A model generated the notes under the pieces. It saw only the letters and a program-made list of their open reading frames with translations. It had not been told where the DNA came from and made no database searches. Shown here piece by piece: positions 593 through 11,400 of a stretch of 64,000 nucleotides of DNA. Position 1 is the first letter of the stretch. Each line of letters begins with the position of its first letter. Location: contig OX638340.1 of assembly GCA_951812955.1 (NCBI GenBank), positions 2,784,001-2,848,000 of the forward strand, written 5' to 3'. The position numbers and the translations under genes were made by a program. The stretch is from an uncultured Gemmatimonadota bacterium. GTDB taxonomy: Bacteria > JAAXHH01.

Positions 593-807
593 GGCCAGGG
601 TTTGGATCAGAATGGAACGGTGTCGCGATCGGATGTGGAAACCCGATGCGTCCGGATCGGACCAATATAACGCGGTACAATCAAAAAGGGAACAAAAAGC
701 AGTCCAGGAGCTCGCGAAACTCACCCGTCGATAAGGCGATATTGGTACGCCGGTAAATAACATGGACGTGGCCGGACTGGCAGGCAAATACCCGTGTCTG
801 ATTGTCT

Positions 808-2067
808 TTATCCTGGGCGAGCAAGGTGTGGCTCTTCATCGAATGCTCCCGTTGTATCGAATTCCTCCGTCGAATCAAATTCTTCTGTCGTATCGAATAC
901 CCTCGTTGGATACCGGGTTTCCTGCTCCTCCTGGCGTCGAGAGGCTTTGAATCTCCGAAATCGTCTCCATGCCAGGGAAAGACCGGTCCATACCAGGACC
1001 ACGGCGCCGGCTGACGCCACGCCCGCGATGAGCTGACCGAACCATCCGGCCGCTTCGCCCGTGTGTATCCAGCGCAGCCAGGTGCGGATCTGCCGTCCCA
1101 TGTTCAAGCTGGTGAAGGGTATCCATTCGACCACCCCTGCATCGCTCGTGGATACGGTGAGCGTCGATCGAGTCAGCGGAATGCGGTTGTCCATTTCAGA
1201 AACGGTCAGCGTGGTGGTTTCCGCGCCTTCTTTCGGCAGGTTCAGCGTGATGTACGCCCATTCCGGTACCTGCCTGCGCGCCGCGTCCAGAAAAGATTCG
1301 GAGGGAGCGACCGGCAACGGCGTGGTTTCATCCCCGGGCGTTGCCGGTTCAGACGCGGTTTGCGCTGCCCGTTGGGGCGGTTCCGTACCCGTAAGCGTGT
1401 AGACCAGGTCGCCCGCCCAACGATAGGAAATGACGACCCCGCTCAGCGAGATCAGGAAGAGGGCGGGAAGACACCAGAATCCGAAGGAATTGTGCCAGTT
1501 GAAATCCCGGTTTTTCCCCTTGATTTTGAAGTTCGGTACGAAGACTGCCTTGAACGCCGCCCATGTCCACCGGCGGGGCCACCAGATGTACAGACCCGTG
1601 ATGGTCAACAGGCAGAACGCCAGGTTGCAGGCACCCGTAACCGCGCGGGCGACCGCCCGGTTTTCGCCTTCCGCGCCGAACCAGCGGTGCCAGTACATGA
1701 TCTCCCGGAGGAAATCGCGGACGGCAATGTTTCCTTCGCCCCGAACATCCCCGGTATAGGGATCGACGAAGACGGTTTTCGCGCGGCCGTACCGCACGAC
1801 GTACGCCTCGGCCGGATCCGGACGTATGGTAACGGAGGCTGGCTCCGCTTCGGGATCGGCGTTCCGGACCGACGTGAGCACTGCGTCCATATCCATCCGC
1901 GCGGCGCCGGGATGGGGAGGATGGACCGTGGCGTAATTCCGGTTGGCGTAATCGACGATCTGACTCTGGAATGTGAGCAGCACGCCGGTTACCGACATGA
2001 ACAGGATGACGACGCCGGTGACGACGCCCGACGAGAGGTGGATCCAGAAGATGGTTTTTCGAATCAT
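808..2067 (-). CDS. PepSY-associated TM-helix protein (PiuB-like putative iron-uptake reductase/accessory membrane protein)
   Basis: 419 aa. N-terminal PepSY_TM pattern (MIRKTIFWIHLSSGVVTGVVILFMSVTGVLL), multiple TM segments, and C-terminal acidic FDTTEEFDSTEEFDTTGAFDEE repeats. Sits between feoA and feoB. Confidence 0.65.
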   Translation of the reverse strand: MIRKTIFWIHLSSGVVTGVVILFMSVTGVLLTFQSQIVDYANRNYATVHPPHPGAARMDMDAVLTSVRNADPEAEPASVTIRPDPAEAYVVRYGRAKTVFVDPYTGDVRGEGNIAVRDFLREIMYWHRWFGAEGENRAVARAVTGACNLAFCLLTITGLYIWWPRRWTWAAFKAVFVPNFKIKGKNRDFNWHNSFGFWCLPALFLISLSGVVISYRWAGDLVYTLTGTEPPQRAAQTASEPATPGDETTPLPVAPSESFLDAARRQVPEWAYITLNLPKEGAETTTLTVSEMDNRIPLTRSTLTVSTSDAGVVEWIPFTSLNMGRQIRTWLRWIHTGEAAGWFGQLIAGVASAGAVVLVWTGLSLAWRRFRRFKASRRQEEQETRYPTRVFDTTEEFDSTEEFDTTGAFDEEPHLARPG

Positions 2068-2237
2068 AATGCCCCGCGGTTATTCGATGGAATTGACACC
2101 GAGAACCAGGGGGCTTATATTCAAATACAGGCCGGGACCGGATTGTACTCGCCAAACGTACGTATCCCCCTGGTCCAGGGACTATCGGGGAGAGCCGGCC
2201 AGCCGAACCGATAGTCCTTTTTTTATTACCCTTCAGT

Positions 2238-2501
2238 TCAGATTCTTTCCACCAAAACCGAACGAGCCTCCGCGCATCGAATAGACAGGTGATAGTTCCG
2301 TACGCGTATCTCGATAGGGTCACCCATCGGTGCACGCTTGATCAATTCTACGGTCGTGCCCGGAAGCAGCCCCAGTTCCATCAGGTGCACTTCTTCCCCC
2401 GCCGTGCCCTTGATCTGCCTGATCGTTCCTTTTTCGCCAGGCTTCAGTTCATCCAGGCGAATCGTCTGCGCCGTTGTACTGGTAAAGAGTTCGGAGTGCA
2501 T
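2238..2501 (-). CDS. feoA: Ferrous iron transport protein A (FeoA domain)
   Basis: 87 aa with an SH3-like FeoA pattern (LDELKPGEKGTIRQI...LMELGLLPGTTVELIKRAPMGDPIEIRVRNYHLSIR). Confidence 0.8.
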   Translation of the reverse strand: MHSELFTSTTAQTIRLDELKPGEKGTIRQIKGTAGEEVHLMELGLLPGTTVELIKRAPMGDPIEIRVRNYHLSIRCAEARSVLVERI

Positions 2502-2671
2502 GGGTTATCTCGTGTCAGAGGGTCCTATGCCGGTACTAGCTACGGAACTGAAAGGTGTTATCCGAATAGGCAGGATCTCCTGTCGGTGGAATCGATCCGT
2601 TATAGTATGAATTTGACCTGACACGACGGTCTCCTTAAAACCCGCCGCCGGTCTACCGAATACCTCGTTCC

Positions 2672-3202
2672 TCACGCAGACTCCGATCGGATTACCAGGC
2701 ATTCACCCACTTCCTCGCATACCGCGCAGGAATCGAAATCGCAGATTGACAGCACGTTGGCGTCCCAGTAGGACTTGAGGAACGCCTTGCCGTGGGGGTC
2801 GTCCGAAAGGAGGAACTGCAGGAAGAGCAGTAACCGTTCCCCCGTCTTCGTACTGATCAGGTGCTCGATCTTGCACGCGTCGATTTCCGCCTGATCCGCG
2901 TCGATATGCAGGACGCCCTTGAGAAAGGCGATGAGGATCTGCCGGTGCGACCAGACCGACTGCGCCAGCCGGTTTCCCTCTTCCGACAGCAGGAGAAACC
3001 GGTTCCGGTCTTCCTCGAGATATCCCTTCTCCCGGAGCGACTTGATCATGATCGACGCGCTGCCGGGCGTGATGTGCATTTCCCGGGCGACATCCGACAC
3101 GCGGGCGTATCCCTGGTCCTCGATCAACTGCTGGACCGTCATCAGGTAGTGCGCGCCGCTGTGCGTGATCTCGTTGTGCTCGAATTCTCTCCAGACATCC
3201 AT
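2672..3202 (-). CDS. DtxR/MntR-family metal-dependent transcriptional repressor
   Basis: ORF 2672..3247. The likely start is the internal Met (MDVWREF..., minus-strand ATG at 3202..3200). There is an N-terminal HTH (ARVSDVAREMHITPGSASIMIKSLREKGYLEE) and a C-terminal metal-binding/dimerisation region typical of DtxR, directly upstream of feoA. Confidence 0.7.
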   Translation of the reverse strand: MDVWREFEHNEITHSGAHYLMTVQQLIEDQGYARVSDVAREMHITPGSASIMIKSLREKGYLEEDRNRFLLLSEEGNRLAQSVWSHRQILIAFLKGVLHIDADQAEIDACKIEHLISTKTGERLLLFLQFLLSDDPHGKAFLKSYWDANVLSICDFDSCAVCEEVGECLVIRSESA

Positions 3203-3327
3203 AATCCTGTTCGATTCGTTATGGCAACCATCGTGTTGCCGTCGCATAGAAATGTTTGGCTACTCAAATATGACTTTGCATTATATAACCTTCCGTTGGG
3301 GTGTCAAGAAAAAAGAAGGCGAGCAGT

Positions 3328-3335
3328 GTTTTTTT
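3328..3335. repeat. Left copy of 8-bp target-site duplication GTTTTTTT flanking the IS
   Basis: GTTTTTTT immediately precedes the left terminal inverted repeat. An identical octamer immediately follows the right IR at 5875..5882. Confidence 0.7.
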
Positions 3336-3357
3336 CGCAATGACAAGTTTTGTACTT
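3336..3357. repeat. Left terminal inverted repeat of IS (22 bp)
   Basis: Exact reverse complement of 5853..5874. Confidence 0.8.
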
Positions 3358-3431
3358 GACGGGCGGACCGGGCCATGGTATATTGAGGGTAGATAAGGAC
3401 AACAAACCATTTACCCTGTTGGAGTTATACC

Positions 3432-4307
3432 ATGAACTTGCACGAAGTGTTTACCCGATTCCCCGATCAGAAAGCCTGTATCGACCACCTGGAAGCGATC
3501 CGTTTTGCAAACGGCGCATATTGCCCGTTGTGCGGGAGCATGGAGAACGTCCGCCGGTCCAACCTGAAAAGCCGTGTCGGACGCTGGAACTGCCATGACT
3601 GCAAATCCTCGTTTAACGTCCTATCCGGTACGCCGTTATCCGGTACGCATATCCCGTTGCCCCGATGGTTCGCGGTCATGGCCCTGATGGTCAATGCCAA
3701 GAAGTCGCTGTCGAGCCACCAGTTGGCGCGGGATCTCGGATTGACCCAGCCTACGGCCCTGTACATGCAGGAACGCCTACGGGCGGTTATGGCATCCGAT
3801 CAAGCCGGTATGCTGGCCGGCATCATCGAAGCGGACGAAACCTACGTGGGCGGACGCCCGCGCAAGCAGAACAAGCGCGACGATTCCCCGACCGGCGGAC
3901 AGGGTAAATCGGACAAGACCCCGGTAATCGGCGCAGTCGAACGAGATGGCAAGGTCGTGGCGAAGATCGCCGATGACATGACCGGCAAGGGCGTGCTGAA
4001 CTTCATCCAGACCGCCGTAAGTCCGGCGGCTCAGATACTGGTTACCGATGAGAACAAGGCATATCGGGCGGTACGCGGCATGATGGCGCACAGCGTGATC
4101 AATCACCGTTACGAGTACGTCAACGGGCCGGTACACACGAACACGATTGAAGGGTTTTGGAGCCTGTTAAAACGGGCGTGGTACGGCAGTCATCACAAGT
4201 ACACGGTCGGACGTATGCCGTTGTTTATCGCGGAAGCGGCTTGGAAGTACAACCACCGGAAAGACGGATGCGCGTGGGACAGTTTCACGCGTGCATTGTT
4301 CGCGTAG
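3432..4307 (+). CDS. IS1595-family (ISXO2-like) DDE transposase
   Basis: 291 aa. N-terminal zinc ribbon (CPLCGS...WNCHDCKSSF), an HTH, then the IS1595 hallmark IEADETYVGG, plus DENKAYRAV and HTNTIEGFWSLLKR motifs. Confidence 0.85.
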   Translation: MNLHEVFTRFPDQKACIDHLEAIRFANGAYCPLCGSMENVRRSNLKSRVGRWNCHDCKSSFNVLSGTPLSGTHIPLPRWFAVMALMVNAKKSLSSHQLARDLGLTQPTALYMQERLRAVMASDQAGMLAGIIEADETYVGGRPRKQNKRDDSPTGGQGKSDKTPVIGAVERDGKVVAKIADDMTGKGVLNFIQTAVSPAAQILVTDENKAYRAVRGMMAHSVINHRYEYVNGPVHTNTIEGFWSLLKRAWYGSHHKYTVGRMPLFIAEAAWKYNHRKDGCAWDSFTRALFA

Positions 4308-4325
4308 ACAGGAACTCGTTTTCGC

Positions 4326-5576
4326 TTAGACGGGCGATAAGATACTCCATAGGCCGGTCGCCCTTGATCTTGTTGCAATGACCACATAGCAGTTGCAGGT
4401 TGCCGATATGACCCCCCCCCCCTTCGACTGTGGCACGACATGATCGACCTCGAAATGCCGGTAATCGAACGAGTATTTACACCCGTTGCATTGCCCCTCT
4501 TGCTCTCCGAACAGGATATGCTTCGTCTCCCTGTTCTTGTACATCACGTCCAGCACGCCCTCTTGCTTCGGTATATCCTTCCGGTGGATGATATCCCCGA
4601 ACAGCCCGTGATGATCCCGTAGACGATGCTCCACGAGTTCCACGGCCTTCTCCGACAGGTCGATCCCCGCCCATTGCCTCAAGTGCGTTTCAGCCGAAAC
4701 ACACGCGGTAGCGCATCCACAGAACGGATCCAAGACCACGTCGCCCTCGTTGCTGGATGCAAGGATGATGCGTTCCAACAACGCAAGGGGCTTCTGGGTT
4801 TTGAACCCCGTATATTCCTTACCTCTGAGGAAGGGTATATGCGTAATCCAATCTTCAGGAAACTTGCCATTTGGGTTTAGTTCGCAAATCCCTGAAGATG
4901 GTCTCCCAGAACCCAAAGACGATTTAGCGTAGCCCGACCGATTTCGGGATGATTCAGCGTATGGAAGACGTATCGGATCGACGTTGAACGTCCACTGGTC
5001 GGTCTTAGCGTAGAAAAGTATAGTATCGTGCGCCCTCGACAATTGCCGTTGCCTGTTACCGGCCATTCGAGAATAACACCATACAATCTCGTTTCGGAAG
5101 CCAGACCGCCCGAAAACTACATCCATGAGCGTTTTAAGGTAGTGGCTGGCCGTCGGGTCGCAATGCAGATATATCGACCCCGTAGACTTCAATACGCGGC
5201 GCATCTCGATCAAACGCACGGCCATCATGCACAGATACGATTGTGTGTGTTTCCCATGCGCCAAGCCCGCCGTTTCCACTACTCGATACAATGCCGGTTC
5301 CGTGTCTGCGATCAGTCCCATCCAGGCCACATCCAGGTCGGAGAGGGTCCATGTATCCTTGAACGCGGCCCCGGCCGCCTTGCTGCCGATGGGCGCCGCA
5401 TAGTTCCGGTTCGAGTTGAACGGCGGATCAAGGTATATCAGGTCCACGGATTCGGAGTTCATGCCGCGTAGAATGTGCAGGTTGTCGCCCGTCCATATGG
5501 TACGGTTGACCCAGTTAGGAGCAGCCATAGACGCCCTTTCGACAACGGCCCCGAAGTTCCCCCCGGAGCCGTTCAC
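4326..5576 (-). CDS. DNA methyltransferase (beta-class N6-adenine/N4-cytosine, motif IV DPPF before motif I) fused to a C-terminal HNH nuclease domain; HNH frameshifted at a poly-G tract
   Basis: 416 aa. Contains WTGDNLHILRGM...SVDLIYLDPPFNS (motif IV) and TQKPLALLERIILASSNEGDVVLDPFCGCATA (motif I region). The C-terminus CNGCKYSFDYRHFEVDHVVPQSKGGG is the start of an HNH motif. The rest of the motif (HIGNLQLLCGHCNKIKGDRP) is in another frame downstream of the G11 tract. With 9 or 12 Gs the ORF would extend to about 4285. Confidence 0.75.
   Translation of the reverse strand: MNGSGGNFGAVVERASMAAPNWVNRTIWTGDNLHILRGMNSESVDLIYLDPPFNSNRNYAAPIGSKAAGAAFKDTWTLSDLDVAWMGLIADTEPALYRVVETAGLAHGKHTQSYLCMMAVRLIEMRRVLKSTGSIYLHCDPTASHYLKTLMDVVFGRSGFRNEIVWCYSRMAGNRQRQLSRAHDTILFYAKTDQWTFNVDPIRLPYAESSRNRSGYAKSSLGSGRPSSGICELNPNGKFPEDWITHIPFLRGKEYTGFKTQKPLALLERIILASSNEGDVVLDPFCGCATACVSAETHLRQWAGIDLSEKAVELVEHRLRDHHGLFGDIIHRKDIPKQEGVLDVMYKNRETKHILFGEQEGQCNGCKYSFDYRHFEVDHVVPQSKGGGVISATCNCYVVIATRSRATGLWSILSPV
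4412..4422. repeat. Homopolymeric tract C11 (G11 on the coding strand) inside the HNH domain coding region
   Basis: Direct count of 11 consecutive C at 4412..4422. The frameshift between the two halves of the HNH motif coincides with it. Confidence 0.9.
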
Positions 5577-5670
5577 CGCGTGATTGTGGATTGTTTGTGA
5601 ATAAATCGGGGTTGCGCTGCCCTGTCAAGCGTAACGTACACGGTAGTCGGGTTCGTGCCTAATCTCATAC

Positions 5671-5718
5671 ATAGTTAAAGGACCGGAGATCATGCACGAT
5701 CCCCGGTCCTTTAACTAT
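5671..5718. promoter_or_regulatory. Perfect 16-bp-arm inverted repeat (ATAGTTAAAGGACCGG / CCGGTCCTTTAACTAT) with 16-nt spacer, upstream of the methyltransferase-HNH gene
   Basis: Arms at 5671-5686 and 5703-5718 are exact reverse complements. Spacer is AGATCATGCACGATCC. Located about 95-140 bp upstream of the passenger gene start (5576) and inside the IS. Candidate operator/controller site; function not demonstrable from sequence. Confidence 0.45.
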
Positions 5719-5852
5719 AGTCCTCTGCGATCTAACCGTCAATCGGCTCTATCAGTCCGGACGGCGATACTTTCCTGCATCAACCACGGCCCATACCATG
5801 ACTACGAGCGGAACGGCGTACCGTCAACATTACGGGCGGAGGGTTGCGCGGT

Positions 5853-5874
5853 AAGTACAAAACTTGTCATTGCG
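5853..5874. repeat. Right terminal inverted repeat of IS (22 bp)
   Basis: Exact reverse complement of 3336..3357. Confidence 0.8.
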
Positions 5875-5882
5875 GTTTTTTT
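5875..5882. repeat. Right copy of 8-bp target-site duplication GTTTTTTT
   Basis: Identical to 3328..3335 and immediately abuts the right IR. Confidence 0.7.
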
Positions 5883-5966
5883 TCGCGGGGCGGGTGCGAG
5901 GTGGGTACGTACGCGCACAAGCGTGCGCGCGTTCCGTAGTTGTGCTAAAAAGGAGTTGAATGTATT

Positions 5967-8321
5967 TTGTATCATAGGAGTTCTATGCCCCGTAAACTAC
6001 ACCGGGACCTCGGCATGACGAATACGATACCTTTTGCGGAACTTTCGGACCGGCTCAAGGACGACGATTTGCCGGAGATCCTGGTTCGGGATCATCTCGA
6101 CAGGATGGAGCCGGCCTATTTCGAGCGTTACGAGCCCGGGGTGATCCGTAGCCACATCGCGATGATCAGCCGGCTGGGACCTGAGAACGCCGCGGAGATC
6201 GAGGTAGAACCCCTGGGCGATTCGACGTGGCGGCTAACCGTCGTCGCTTTCGACAACCTGTCGGTGATGTCCATCCTGTCGGGACTCCTGGCGACCAGCG
6301 GATTGAGCATTCGCCGCGGGGACGTATTCACCTACGTGGACGCGGAACCGGCAAGCGATGCTCGCAAGCGGTCCCGTCGCCCTCAACGGCGGCGGCGCGT
6401 CGGTTCGGGCGCTCCGGCCGCTCCGCAGGGCATCACCTCGTCGTCGTTGCGTTCCCAGCGAAAGATCGTAGACGTATTCCGCGTGCACGCGCCATCGGAG
6501 TCGCCGTCGGACTGGCCCGCCGTTACGCGGGAAATCAAGGACGCCATGGGCAACCTGCGGTCGAACAGCGCCGGGGCGTTGCAGAGAAGGCTCAACGAGC
6601 GCGTCGTGGATTACCTCCGTCACGAGCGGGACGCGGAGCACTCCTCCATGTTCCCGGTGCATGTGGGGATCGACAATGATACCGTGTCCGGGGCGACCCG
6701 GCTCGACATCACGGGGCAGGACACGCCGGCGTTTCTGTACGCCCTTTCTACCGCCCTGGCCCTGCGCAATATTAACATTCGACGAATCGATATCGCGGCC
6801 GCCGGGATACAAGTGCAGGATACGCTCGAGGTGACCGACCGGCGGGGATCGAAAATCACCGATCCGCGGAAACTTCAGGAACTGCGATTCGTTATCACGC
6901 TCATCAAGCAGTTCACCCACCTGCTGACCCGGGCGCCGAATCCCGCCCAGGCCCTGGAACACTTCAATCAATTGATCGACCAGGTCCTGGCCAACGTACA
7001 GTCCGGCCGGGCGATGGAGGAGATGTTCGACCAGTTGGAGAAGCAGGAAGTAATCAGCGCGATGGCAAAGATTTTCGGCACGAGCGATTTCCTGTGGAAG
7101 GACTTCCTCAGGATGCAATACAAGAACCTGTTCCCCGTGCTGCAGGACATCAGGGTGGTGGGTATCGTAAGGTCGAGGGAGCAGATGGAAAGCGAACTGG
7201 CCGCGCGGTTGTCCAGGGTCGGAAGTTACGCCCGCCGCAAGGAACTGTTGAACCGGTACAAGGATAAGGAGATGCTGCGGATCAGCATGCGCCAGATCCT
7301 GGAGAATAACGAGGACATCCAGGCCTTTTCCCATGAACTCACCACGCTGGCCGAGGTGGTCCTGGAATCGGCCTTCGAGATCTGCGACCGGGAGCAGCGC
7401 CTTCAGTACGGTGGCCCGCTTTTGCCGTCCGGCGAGCCCTGCGTCTTCAGTATCTGCGCGCTGGGAAAATGCGGCGGCCGGGAACTGGGCTGGGCTTCAG
7501 ATATAGAACTGATGTTCGTTTACGCGGGACAGGGCACTACGCAAGGCCCCCAGGCCGTGTTGAATTCGGAGTATTACGAGCGTCTCGCGCGCATGATCTG
7601 CGGCACGATCGAATCACGGCGAGAGGGCCTGTTCGAGATCGACCTCAGGTTGCGGCCCTATGGCGACAAGGGTGCGCTGGCGTCGTCCCTGGAGAAGTTC
7701 AACGCGTATTTCAACGAAAAGGGAGGCGCTTTGCCCTACGAGCGCCACGCCCTGATCAAGCTGCGCGCCATCGGAGGCGATCCGGTCCTGGGCGCCGCCG
7801 TGGAAACAGCCCGCGATACATTCGTGTACAACGACGCCCCGGTCGACGGCAGGTCGTGGACCCACCTTCGCGAGCGTCAGAACGACGAACTGGTCGAAAC
7901 CGGCGCCATCAACGTCAAATACAGTTACGGTGGATTGATCGACATCGAGTATTACGTACAGGATCTGCAGATCCTCTACGGTGCTACGAACCCCTCTGTG
8001 CGCGGTCCGACGACCCTGGAGGCCATGGACGCCCTCAGCCGGGCCGGATACCTTGCAGACGAAGCGCGCAGCATGCTGGAACGGGCGTACGGGTTCCTTG
8101 TCAGGCTGATCAACGCCCTACGCATGGTACGCGGAAACGCAAAAGACCTGGTCCTTCCGGAAAAGTCGTCCCAGGAATTCCTGTTTCTCGCCCGTCGCCT
8201 CGGATACGAGGAGGGGAGCGGACCGGGACCGGACGAACAACTGCGGCAGGACATTGAACGGAACATGGAATGGGCGGCCATGGCGATGAGAACACGGTTC
8301 GTCCATAAGCTGTTCGACTGA
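5967..8321 (+). CDS. GlnD/GlnE-family nucleotidyltransferase with two N-terminal ACT-like domains (PII uridylyltransferase / GS adenylyltransferase-like)
   Basis: 784 aa. Nucleotidyltransferase motif FSICALGKCGGRELGWASDIELMFVY (GlnE/GlnD type GSxxxxExxxxSDIDL) followed by a GlnE-like helical C-terminal region. Two ACT-like regulatory segments in the N-terminal 300 aa. Confidence 0.55.
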   Translation: MYHRSSMPRKLHRDLGMTNTIPFAELSDRLKDDDLPEILVRDHLDRMEPAYFERYEPGVIRSHIAMISRLGPENAAEIEVEPLGDSTWRLTVVAFDNLSVMSILSGLLATSGLSIRRGDVFTYVDAEPASDARKRSRRPQRRRRVGSGAPAAPQGITSSSLRSQRKIVDVFRVHAPSESPSDWPAVTREIKDAMGNLRSNSAGALQRRLNERVVDYLRHERDAEHSSMFPVHVGIDNDTVSGATRLDITGQDTPAFLYALSTALALRNINIRRIDIAAAGIQVQDTLEVTDRRGSKITDPRKLQELRFVITLIKQFTHLLTRAPNPAQALEHFNQLIDQVLANVQSGRAMEEMFDQLEKQEVISAMAKIFGTSDFLWKDFLRMQYKNLFPVLQDIRVVGIVRSREQMESELAARLSRVGSYARRKELLNRYKDKEMLRISMRQILENNEDIQAFSHELTTLAEVVLESAFEICDREQRLQYGGPLLPSGEPCVFSICALGKCGGRELGWASDIELMFVYAGQGTTQGPQAVLNSEYYERLARMICGTIESRREGLFEIDLRLRPYGDKGALASSLEKFNAYFNEKGGALPYERHALIKLRAIGGDPVLGAAVETARDTFVYNDAPVDGRSWTHLRERQNDELVETGAINVKYSYGGLIDIEYYVQDLQILYGATNPSVRGPTTLEAMDALSRAGYLADEARSMLERAYGFLVRLINALRMVRGNAKDLVLPEKSSQEFLFLARRLGYEEGSGPGPDEQLRQDIERNMEWAAMAMRTRFVHKLFD

Positions 8322-8406
8322 TATGCTCGACGGACGACTTTCAACAGACGCTTACGACTGAGGCTTTCGACGGACGGCTCTGATTTTCACTACCTGGAAT
8401 GGCACA

Positions 8407-11400
8407 ATGAATCTGCGGCAAAACAAAATGAAGGTGGCATTGGTCCTGTCGGCCTCGTTGATCATGGCCGCGAGTCTTGCCGTCCTCATCCTGCTGAGTA
8501 CCGGCTGGGGCATGAACCTGGTCCGCCAGGCCGTGTTGCGGAATGTCCAGGAACGGCTCAACGGGCAGATTACGATCGAACGGATCGAGCTTGGTTTGAA
8601 GACGCACCTGGCGGTGCGGGGCGTATCTCTAGCCCTGGCGGAAAACCAGGGCGGCACGGAAGTCATGGGAGCGGATGAAATCCGGATTGGCTTCAACGCC
8701 TGGGACGCCCTGGTCGATGATGCGCCTCTCTACAGCGTCGATATCGACGGATTCCGCATGGCCTACTTCGAAGATGCCGCGGGGAGCGGGAAGAATACTC
8801 TGGACCTGCTGCTGGAGAGTCCGGCGCGCGGCGCGGAAGCGGCCGGGTCGTCTGAGGGAGAACAGTCCGGCCTGCCGATCGATCTGCGCGACCTGCGGAT
8901 CCGGAACGGACAGTTCCGCTATTTCGACCCCGCGGATTCCACGGCGGTGAGCGCCGGGGAAGTCGGTTTCCGCGGTGCCCTGCTCCAGCCGTTCAAGGTG
9001 GATGGCGAAATAGCCGCGGGGCATGTGGCTTTCAATATAGGAGGCTATGAAGACGCCGTCACGAATATGGAAGCGGCCGTTTACTTCGAAGAGGATGCCC
9101 TGACCATTCACGATCTGACGATGGAATTCGCCTATGGCCCCCCGATAGCGTTCCACGCGACCGGCGAGATCTCGACAGCGCGCGGGAATCCCGCCACACT
9201 GGATTTCGCCGCGAACGGACAGGTAGGCGCCATTCTGCGCGTCATAGGTTTTGAGAACGACATGCCCGGGATTTTCAGCATGACCGGGTCGCTGCGAAAC
9301 AGCCTTTCCGACCCCGACGTGAAGACCAGATTCATCTCGCCGGTGGTGCGAACGGAGTACGGCCCGTTCAATCTGGCCGCGGTGGACATGGCATATGGGC
9401 AGCATGTACTCACGGTAAGCCGGTTCCGGGGTAAGCATGAGGCCGGATGGATATCGGGAAGGGGCCTGCTCGATTTTAGCGGGGAATCAACCGGATACCG
9501 CCTGCAGTTGGAGTCTCCCGGAATCGCACTCCACGCATTGCCGCCGGTCCTCGCCGACAGCGGGAGCGAATTGGAGGGAGACGTGGGTCTGGCCTTCGAA
9601 ATGGAAGGAAGAGGGTTCGACGGCCCGCCTCGCCGGGCGGATCTGAACGCTTCTTCCTCCCTGGTGAGCATAAACGGCCTGCCGTTGCGGGAAGTCACGG
9701 CAATGGCCGAGTACCGCCGCGGACTGCTCTGGGCCGACCTTAGGGAAGCGTCTTTCCGGGCCGACGCCGAAGGCCGGCTCGGTACGGATGGAGAACTCCA
9801 GCTGACCGGTTCGGTCGACGTGAATGACATTGGAAACCTGCCCCCTCCGCTGGACATCGCCGGGCTTCGAGGTACGGCCAGACTGGATACCTACCTGCTG
9901 GGCACGCTGCGGCGGCCGACCGTCCGACTGGCCGGTTGGGTCAGCGAAATGGCCTATGGCGATGTCCCGTTCGGTGAGACGAAGATCGAGGGATTCCTCG
10001 ACGAAGTACGCAACCTGACGATCAATGCCGTGCTGGACAGGCTGGAGATCTATGCCAGGACGAGCCTGGCCGGGGACCCGGCCGTCACCGGTTATTTCAA
10101 CCTGCATGATCTCAGACTCGGCGATTACCTCTGGGACGATCCCGGCTGGGGGCTGGATGCCATCCTTCGCATGCAGGGCGATATTTCCGGTACCGTTCAG
10201 CAGCCTGTCGTTACCGGAAAGGGTACTGTACGGAGCCTGGTGATCCGAAACGAAGACCTGGGCGGCACCGATCTGGACATGACGATTACCAGGGACCGCC
10301 TGGAATTCTCCATGACGCGAAACCCAGGACCTACTGTTTCGGCGGAAGGGTCCATCGAGCTGACCGGGCAATACCCCTACGATTTGCGGCTCGAACTTCT
10401 TCAGACTTCGCTGTCTCCGCTCCTCTCCATACTCTCCAAAAAACCGATTGAGGGCGGCACCGGCACGTTCAGCGGGAACATACATGCCGTGGGACTGGCC
10501 GGATATCCGGACCGGTCCACCGTAACGGTCTCCCTCGATTCGCTGGGTATCCTGATGGACGGCCGCGAACTGCATTTCGCCGCTCCCTCCACCGTGAAAC
10601 TCGAGAACCAGGTCGTTACCGTGGACGAATTCAGACTGACGGGTGATTTCGGCGAGGTAACGGTCAACGGTACGGCGAGTCTGGCCGCCGAAGGCCGGGT
10701 CGACCTCGAAACCGTTCTGGAGGGCGTACGGCTGGAGTTTTTCTCGCCTTTCCTTGTGTCCGACGGTACGTTCAGCGGCTCCACGGATGGGGTGATCTCC
10801 CTGAGTGGGACCCCGGCCGTCCCCAGGATCAACGGCCTGTTTACTATTTCGGACGTGAGTTACACATTGAACGAAAAAACGAACCTCCTGGGTACGGTGA
10901 CCGGATCGGTGCTCTACTCAGACCGGTCGATCAAGGTCCCCGTCCTGTCCCTGCATACCCTGCTGGGATTGTCGGAGATCAATCTGACCTATCCCATCGA
11001 TCTCGGGTGGGCGCCGGGCGGTCAGCCGGAATCACCTCCGCCCGGTGACAGATACGCGGCCGCCCTGGTCATGGATAACCTGGCCGTAGCGCCCCTGAGG
11101 GAGTTCTTCGAGGTGGTGCCGGCCGATCTGGACGGATACATCAAGGGCAGGATCGACATGAACGGCTCGGTCCGGGACCGGAGCGATCTGGCGGGGAACG
11201 TGGCACTGGATTCACTGAAGCTGTTCGGCCTGCAAAACGAGTTCGTCAATACCCATCCGGTCAGTCTGCAATTCGACGGGACCCATATCCATATGGATTC
11301 GCTGTCCGCCGTGATACGCAATAAAAACCAGCCCGATGACGAGCGGGGCCGCCTTACGTTGAACGGCCGCCTGGCGTACGGCATCGGCGGGACCGAAACG

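Follow-up and report, generated by a model that had tools for sequence, protein, structure and literature searches.

What is the state of a methyltransferase-nuclease gene that travels inside an insertion sequence (IS), and whose nuclease end is out of frame at a long homopolymer? The question is raised by an element at positions 3336-5874 of a 64-kb window (the whole stretch of DNA analysed, 64,000 nucleotides, positions 2,784,001 to 2,848,000 of contig OX638340.1 in assembly GCA_951812955.1) from an uncultured Gemmatimonadota bacterium. We interpret it as an IS1595-family transporter IS (tIS) whose cargo, a Type III Mod-like methyltransferase (MTase) fused to an HNH nuclease, has its nuclease out of frame at a slippage-prone run, with such runs acting as contingency switches in the MTase-HNH gene family; we put the probability of this reading at roughly 0.6.

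The left terminal inverted repeat (3336-3357, plus strand, CGCAATGACAAGTTTTGTACTT) and the right one (5853-5874, minus strand) are exact reverse complements over 22 of 22 bp, and the 22-mer occurs at these two places only in the window, even with up to 3 mismatches tolerated (chance expectation 0.00). The outer side of both repeats is abutted by GTTTTTTT, giving left and right copies of a target-site duplication at 3328-3335 and 5875-5882. The outer edges of the repeats are 2,539 bp apart, and between them lie a 291-amino-acid plus-strand open reading frame (ORF; 3432-4307) and a convergent 416-amino-acid minus-strand ORF (4326-5576). In a syntenic relative (L174, about 92% nucleotide identity) the site is empty and holds a single GTTTTTTT: the sequence ...GCAGTGTTTTTTTTCGCGGGGC... 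is that of the two window flanks fused with one repeat copy, and the intergenic stretch ...GGCGAGCAGTGTTTTTTTTCGCGGGGC... unites both flanks in the same way. BLASTN aligns window positions 699-3335 with positions 2320-4902 of this relative and 5875-9372 with 4895-8361, the two flank alignments sharing exactly 8 bp with no other insertion there, and three further relatives (L175-L177) are likewise without an insertion at the site. The window segment 3336-5874 is a true insertion with an 8-bp target-site duplication, as a preliminary description of the locus had proposed from the perfect repeats and the flanking direct repeat. That description also called the event recent; the insertion itself stands, and its date is only loosely bounded, with the closest empty site in a genome about 92% identical and no second copy in the window.

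The insertion point, in a sponge-type Gemmatimonadota genome, is a T-run in the intergenic space that separates a DtxR-like from a GlnE-like gene. Homologues of the GlnE-like protein with 81-95% identity lie in contigs whose gene order is that of the window (FeoB, PepSY, FeoA, DtxR, then GlnE and TamB), and in these relatives the spacer between the DtxR-like and GlnE-like genes is only about 230-260 bp; the T-run is also kept in relatives.

The plus-strand ORF at 3432-4307 encodes an IS1595-family transposase with an N-terminal zinc ribbon and a DDE-type core, and here too the preliminary description, which had relied on the zinc ribbon and an EADETYVGG block, proves correct. The protein reaches 170.9 bits with the NCBIfam model NF033547 (IS1595 family; cut-off 75) with positions 2-215 of 215 covered, matches Pfam PF12762 (ISXO2-like DDE) end to end (1-153 of 153, 1.7e-35), and contains the zinc ribbon PF12760 (2.9e-09, 37.2 bits against a cut-off of 25.4) with cysteine motifs CPLC at residue 31 and CHDC at residue 54. 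Its DDE-core blocks are EADETYVGG at 133, LVTDENKAY at 203 and HTNTIEGFWSLLKR at 235, together with a further block LFIAEAAWKYN, and their counterparts are found in the catalytic signature given for IS1016/IS1595 elements, where AT-rich 8-bp direct repeats also occur (PMC12561309). A length of 291 amino acids is the most frequent one among thousands of transposase homologues. Having a DDE domain, a zinc ribbon, terminal inverted repeats and an AT-rich 8-bp duplication (7-9 bp being the range), the window element is an IS1595-family IS with a full-length transposase. We know of no IS1595 subgroup whose end consensus resembles the termini found here (CGCAATG...). A sigma-70-like promoter by consensus match (TTGACG, 17 nt, TATATT, with TG; 3356-3384, plus strand) is directed at the transposase gene, and its -35 hexamer overlaps the inner edge of the left repeat. 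As in other IS1595 elements, the zinc-ribbon DDE transposase would attach to the 22-bp ends and insert them into AT-rich DNA at a staggered break, with 8 bp between the two cuts; its transcription probably starts from this promoter. Mobility, which the preliminary description thought probable, has indirect support in the empty site and in the presence of relatives at other loci.

IS-like elements with passenger genes are termed tIS, a class described for IS1595 (10.1101/2021.05.26.445724). With its passenger at 4285-5576, inside a single repeat pair and beside one transposase gene, the window element is a tIS, that is, one IS carrying cargo between its own repeats, and belongs to a class already known. 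Two points of the preliminary description are thereby borne out, namely the convergent passenger ORF inside the repeats (4326-5576, minus strand, with an N6_N4_Mtase domain) and the statement that some IS1595 members are reported to carry passengers. Its term composite, however, is wrong: a compound transposon consists of two IS copies flanking the cargo (10.1101/2021.05.26.445724), and although both are mobile DNA with a gene unrelated to transposition, one transposase gene and one repeat pair rule out a composite transposon here. The element shares with the IS1595 tIS of ISfinder and TnCentral the zinc-ribbon DDE transposase, the single repeat pair, the AT-rich 8-bp duplication and the position of the passenger inside the repeats. 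It differs from them in that its transposase is at most 36% identical to the best annotated plasmid relatives in a plasmid search (ISPepr2-like), too distant to place it in one of the ISfinder subgroups (ISPna2, ISH4, IS1016, IS1595, ISSod11, ISNwi1, ISNha5), and in its cargo; in literature searches we found no description of the MTase-HNH fusion as cargo, nor any IS1595 element with methyltransferase or HNH cargo. As an IS it is an ordinary, well-formed tIS of a family in which passengers are familiar, and what it adds is a cargo that is prone to slippage and has spread among sponge symbionts; this is of moderate interest until switching is demonstrated.

The passenger (4285-5528, minus strand, in two frames) is predicted from profiles, structures and frame repair to be a beta-class, Type III Mod-like N6-adenine methyltransferase with a C-terminal four-cysteine HNH nuclease; as sequenced, its 416-amino-acid ORF has an out-of-frame end. 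The N6_N4_Mtase domain (4632-5447, minus strand; Pfam PF01555, 2.8e-42) has a DPPF motif IV near its N-terminus and a DPFCGCAT motif I near its C-terminus, both conserved in the alignment. The HNH motif (4354-4490, minus strand) is recognised in the repaired frame (PF01844, 3.5e-10; PF14279, 7.3e-10), with the frameshift falling between the catalytic D-H and the N-L-Q-L-L-C-x-x-C-N half. The nearest solved structures are those of M.MboIIA, M.BceJIV, CcrM, RsrI and EcoP15I Mod, and PADLOC ranks a Type III MTase model first; taken with the order of the motifs, DPPF first and DPFCGCAT late, these matches indicate a beta-class N6-adenine methyltransferase. An AlphaFold model of an intact IS-borne relative (P0123; predicted local distance difference test score, pLDDT, 74) has a core matching the same beta-class methylases. 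The repaired window protein keeps every alignment-invariant residue, including H363, N376 and the cysteines at 347, 350, 381 and 384. Identity to its closest relative is 83-100% at residues 1-150 and 241-360, as against 27-40% at residues 151-240, and the window's version of this middle segment recurs in more distant proteins; residues 151-240, approximately, thus appear to be a variable target-recognition region of mosaic make-up. Conserved ends with a variable recognition centre are the allele pattern of Type III mod genes.

Neither PADLOC nor PHROGs has a model of the fusion, the two domains being recognised separately, and sequence and fold searches of solved structures matched the methylase core only, were uninformative for the HNH domain and returned no structure that spans both. 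The cargo would be a stand-alone, single-chain gene, with a Mod-like methylase, a swappable recognition centre and a fused HNH domain, and would act as a compact restriction-modification-like module. Single-chain restriction-modification enzymes of Type IIG/IIC, such as MmeI and Eco57I, likewise have methylase, recognition and nuclease in one polypeptide, and HNH-type restriction endonucleases such as KpnI have the same beta-beta-alpha-metal HNH fold. In the single-chain enzymes known so far a gamma-class methylase is paired with a PD-(D/E)XK nuclease, whereas the window passenger is a beta-class methylase followed by a C-terminal HNH domain, with restriction as its putative activity.

The break lies at a run of 11 C (G11 on the coding strand; 4412-4422, minus strand) in the HNH codons K-G-G-G, the only G/C run longer than 7 nt in the window. 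With 11 C the reading frame breaks inside the HNH motif, after the catalytic His and ahead of its remaining residues, whereas with 9 or 12 C the ORF continues through the complete HNH motif to 4285 and overlaps the 3' end of the transposase gene by 23 bp. The other frame downstream of the run is open and encodes all of the alignment-invariant residues, and the run is a simple-sequence repeat inside an ORF whose length sets the frame, as in phase-variable genes. As sequenced, the window copy should yield a methyltransferase with a dead tail. The public annotation (P0121) is a truncated 416-residue product with the MTase as its only Pfam domain, and this product stands in the public record as an ordinary protein. 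The run went unseen in the preliminary description, and its word intact does not hold for the passenger.

The same site is broken in other lineages. In a survey of 97 gene copies for which DNA was available, all 71 copies with a run of at most 6 nt at the HNH site are in frame, and four of the five lineages with a run of at least 8 nt are broken (Fisher p = 3.9e-6); among the 120 closest proteins, those broken at the run position belong to the lineages of the window, L005-L007, L008 and L090 only. The HNH-site run is a recurrent breakpoint. It is G11 and out of frame in the window, G9 with a +1 shift in L005-L007 (identical in three assembly records), G8 with a -1 shift in L008, and G10 in L090, where it is fused to antisense transposase sequence and a deletion begins at the run. 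In L091 a run of G9 is in frame and the gene is intact, so that tract lengths between lineages are 8, 9, 9 (in frame), 10 and 11; the gene is also intact in L089, which has the interrupted GGC GGC GGC.

Long runs are also placed non-randomly in the wider family, as seen in 80 MTase-HNH loci sampled independently from GTDB with one genome per species (706 kb in total). These contain 19 G/C runs of at least 8 nt. The MTase-HNH gene zone, with 17% of the bases, has 10 of them (p = 5e-4), and 7 fall in a 120-nt zone at its 5' end that makes up 1.4% of the bases (p = 4e-9); the conserved N-terminal motif follows these 7 within about 80 nt. At these 5' tracts the gene is OFF, with the upstream ATG out of frame, in L029 (G12), L030 (C9) and L069 (G9), and ON in L051 (C14, ATG in frame), in L087 (G9, in frame from GTG) and probably in L022 (C9 and C11, also from GTG). 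No G/C run of at least 8 nt occurs in 98 kb of gene zone from 80 viral-contig loci, where the phage MTase homologues are mostly methylase-only. Homopolymer slippage is the accepted mechanism of phase-variable restriction-modification systems (PMC12707154), and by analogy the placement of long runs in the MTase-HNH family is the layout of contingency loci. Polymerase slippage on the G-run would repeatedly uncouple a costly nuclease from the methylase, and might recouple it, and across the MTase-HNH family of sponge symbionts the runs would serve as phase-variation switches. Literature searches returned nothing relevant on phase variation in sponge symbionts.

Three loci have long runs next to transposase sequence. 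In L090 (about 1590-1640) the G10 run is joined to the antisense of a transposase 3' end (WLYFHAAS being the antisense of AAWKYNH), and the element is dead, the C-terminal half of the HNH domain and the last part of the transposase gene having gone with the deletion. In L083 a G10 run (8242-8251) stands exactly where a 56%-identical IS1595 transposase match stops at residue 144, so that homopolymer frameshifts may hit transposases too. In L087 (3110-4003) the ORF of an IS1595 transposase continues in frame across the G9 tract, with no stop, as far as the beginning of the methyltransferase gene; whether a transposase-methylase fusion or two separate proteins are made may depend on the length of the tract, and the methylase of this locus is without an HNH domain.

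Several points weigh against the preferred reading. The HNH-site tract sits in the 3' domain, which is not the classical position of a switch; the ON and OFF calls at the 5' tracts depend on assembled homopolymer lengths; and the window holds one copy of the element. HNH has been lost by an irreversible deletion in L090, and in about 10 further copies it was lost or disrupted by other routes, both of which fit plain decay as well as they fit switching. Under plain decay the nuclease would be costly or useless after transfer and the run a mutational hot spot, so that the broken copies would be one-way pseudogenes, each leaving an orphan methyltransferase, with no switching. The unrelated routes by which HNH has disappeared (frameshifts elsewhere in L056 and L068; truncations in L083, L084 and L087) favour such an explanation, as do the L090 deletion, which also removes the transposase 3' end, and the intact L089, in which synonymous GGC codons break up the run as if it had been stabilised. 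However, decay leaves unexplained both the 5'-end enrichment of G/C runs in intact members and their absence from phages, the segments beyond the frameshift in three lineages are free of stops and indels and retain the conserved residues, and an uninterrupted, in-frame G9 persists in L091. We consider plain decay a possible but doubtful account.

Somewhat less probable again is an assembly artefact, in which the real tract would be of 12 (or 9) C, the passenger intact and the break a homopolymer-length miscall. The source is one contig of 3,813,436 bp, and so probably a long-read assembly; homopolymer length is the main residual error of long-read metagenome-assembled genomes, and a one-base miscall, 12 read as 11, would leave the gene intact, which also counts against a frameshifted window copy. 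The open frame beyond the run, with every invariant HNH residue, is likewise what an intact gene predicts. Yet the frame is lost at this codon position also in contigs named like short-read assemblies (the three records L005-L007, and L008), the deletion at the site in L090 is not explicable as a length miscall, and the truncated product is the one in the deposited annotation; a miscall in the window would, moreover, leave the family-level pattern standing.

Programmed slippage on the G-run, transcriptional or ribosomal, strikes us as improbable. It would give mostly methylase and a small share of the full fusion, such that protection comes ahead of restriction, and the finding that four of the five long-run lineages are out of frame and otherwise undamaged agrees with this. 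The run is long enough for RNA-polymerase slippage, and the IS1 relatives of IS1595 make their transposase by programmed frameshifting; an article of 2009 by Siguier, Gagnevin and Chandler reportedly links IS1 and IS1595 in its title. The lineages, however, would need different shifts (+1, -1, and +2 or -1), and this speaks against a single tuned recoding signal. That the segment is no transposon at all, with repeats and flanks belonging to a larger non-mobile repeat or to a prophage or island boundary and the match of GTTTTTTT coincidental, has a negligible chance of being right, since, for all that GTTTTTTT is of low complexity in a T-run kept in relatives and the element is present once in the window, the exact 8-bp overlap of flank alignments with nothing else inserted in L174 excludes a chance low-complexity match and a larger repeat, the clean 2,539-bp insertion relative to the empty site rules out the edge of a prophage or island, and the same 5'-CG(C/G)AAT termini, each time with a separate 8-bp duplication, are found in four related elements whose loci are unrelated.

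Contingency switching is the preferred reading, under which the passenger is a methylase-nuclease of the Type III Mod-like kind, prone to slippage and possibly phase-variable, that IS1595 elements have spread among sponge symbionts. The closest parallel is with the phase-variable Type III mod genes (phasevarions; Seib et al. 2020; PMC12707154), which also encode a beta-class N6-methyladenine (m6A) MTase with conserved ends and a variable recognition centre, contain long simple repeats in the ORF that set its frame, and have relatives that mix in-frame and out-of-frame alleles. The differences are that the nuclease is a fused HNH domain here and a separate Res subunit there; that the tract in the window's clade disables the nuclease only and leaves the methylase ORF whole; that the gene rides on an IS; and that the hosts are sponge symbionts and not host-adapted pathogens, switching in the present case being putative.

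A broader proposal, which we advance tentatively and think more likely wrong than right, is that the MTase-HNH genes of sponge symbionts form a mobile, homopolymer-switched, single-gene restriction-modification or epigenetic system, in which IS1595 elements would move the gene between phyla, recombination would swap its recognition regions, and runs would switch either the whole protein (at the 5' end) or the nuclease only (at the HNH site). If this were true, a population would be a mix of restricting, methylating-only and silent cells, and the system would be the first 'mobile phasevarion' and the first uncoupling of restriction from modification by phase variation in one polypeptide, in a non-pathogen symbiosis. 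Should switching be confirmed, sponge microbiomes would join host-adapted pathogens in having phase-variable methylation and restriction, with the switch gene itself mobile, and this bears on the balance of defence, self-damage and gene exchange in dense symbiont communities under heavy phage pressure.

Several related elements show how the cargo has moved. L001 and L002 (2,214 bp; duplication GTTATTTC) have a transposase 96% identical to that of the window, the window's repeats, and as cargo two unrelated ORFs of 166 and 82 amino acids with no family match. L003 and L004 (2,598 bp; duplication CGATAAAT; transposase 81%) contain an intact 418-amino-acid MTase-HNH gene product 52% identical to the window's, while the MTase cargo is 76% identical in L005-L007 (2,335 bp; duplication TAGATGAA; transposase 67%) and 67% identical in L008 (2,345 bp; duplication AACAGGAA; transposase 65%). 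All related elements end in 5'-CG(C/G)AAT. A mismatch-tolerant search with the core of the window repeat recovers the ends of L001-L004 only; those of L005-L008 and of L089 were found de novo and are unlike the window's beyond the tip. Because the related elements have different AT-rich 8-bp duplications, such a duplication is a property of the lineage, and because the histories of transposase and cargo are discordant, cargo has been exchanged. In L001 (7905-10118) and L002 (37-2250) a window-like transposase and window-like repeats accompany wholly different cargo: similarity to the window ends at the transposase stop codon and restarts at the right repeat, and the entire cargo segment has thus been swapped. 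The 166-residue cargo protein of L001 has a signal-peptide-like N-terminus. No Pfam or PADLOC match was obtained for the alternative cargo of L001, or for the small ORFs that precede the MTase gene in L003 and L090.

The 80 GTDB loci belong overwhelmingly to taxa typical of marine sponges and represent many phyla (Poribacteria, Poriferihabitaceae, Dehalococcoidia, Latescibacterota, Binatia and others), while a metagenome scan with the repaired passenger protein gave two loci only. The sole conserved neighbour is an IS1595-type transposase gene, present in 18 of the 80 and placed either upstream in the same orientation or downstream in the opposite, convergent one; with no other conserved neighbour, the MTase-HNH gene evidently works alone. 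The stand-alone methylase-nuclease fusion is very common in sponge-symbiont genomes of many phyla and recurrently linked to IS1595 transposases. The preliminary description's view that the element spreads a methylase and nuclease module is supported by this linkage and by four related elements with such cargo.

Some of the 80 loci hold tandem MTase-HNH paralogues, with three copies in L035 (6-3702), four in L057 (2472-7480) and two each in L079 and L082. Three of the L057 copies have an identical 60-nt stretch at the HNH site, which suggests recombination or shuffling between copies. In L031 (5944-7827, minus strand) the MTase-HNH gene adjoins a 627-amino-acid ORF whose C-terminal end is an IS1595-type transposase and whose N-terminal part appears to resemble a Type I specificity (HsdS) subunit; it may be a fusion or an over-extended ORF call.

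Upstream of the window's MTase gene lies an unusually long region of 276 bp, which contains a near-perfect palindrome with 24-nt arms (5671-5718; 22-bp stem, RNA fold z = -4.6) and two GATC sites within it. The palindrome occurs once in the window and in none of 177 loci, and is not a canonical terminator. Its sequence is overlapped by the -10 hexamer of a candidate sigma-70-like promoter (TTGACG, 17 nt, TATAGT; 5714-5742, minus strand), which by consensus match is directed at the MTase-HNH gene.

On the left side of the insertion, about 20 bp from the insertion point, a sigma-70-like promoter matching the consensus at 12 of 12 positions (TTGACA, 16 nt, TATAAT; 3280-3307, minus strand) is directed at the DtxR-like gene. 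The IS now stands between this promoter region and the divergent GlnE-like gene, and the regulation of either gene may be altered. The GlnE-like neighbour itself (5967-8321) is a protein of about 780 amino acids with a single GlnE nucleotidyltransferase domain and a GlnD_UR_UTase domain; its distant homologues (41-46% identity) are of about 1,200-1,290 amino acids, and the short form is kept in the relatives with 81-95% identity. Further to the left, about 290 bp of L174 (2027-2319, between the FeoB-side and PepSY-side alignments) have no counterpart around window position 700, and this indel is unconnected with the IS.

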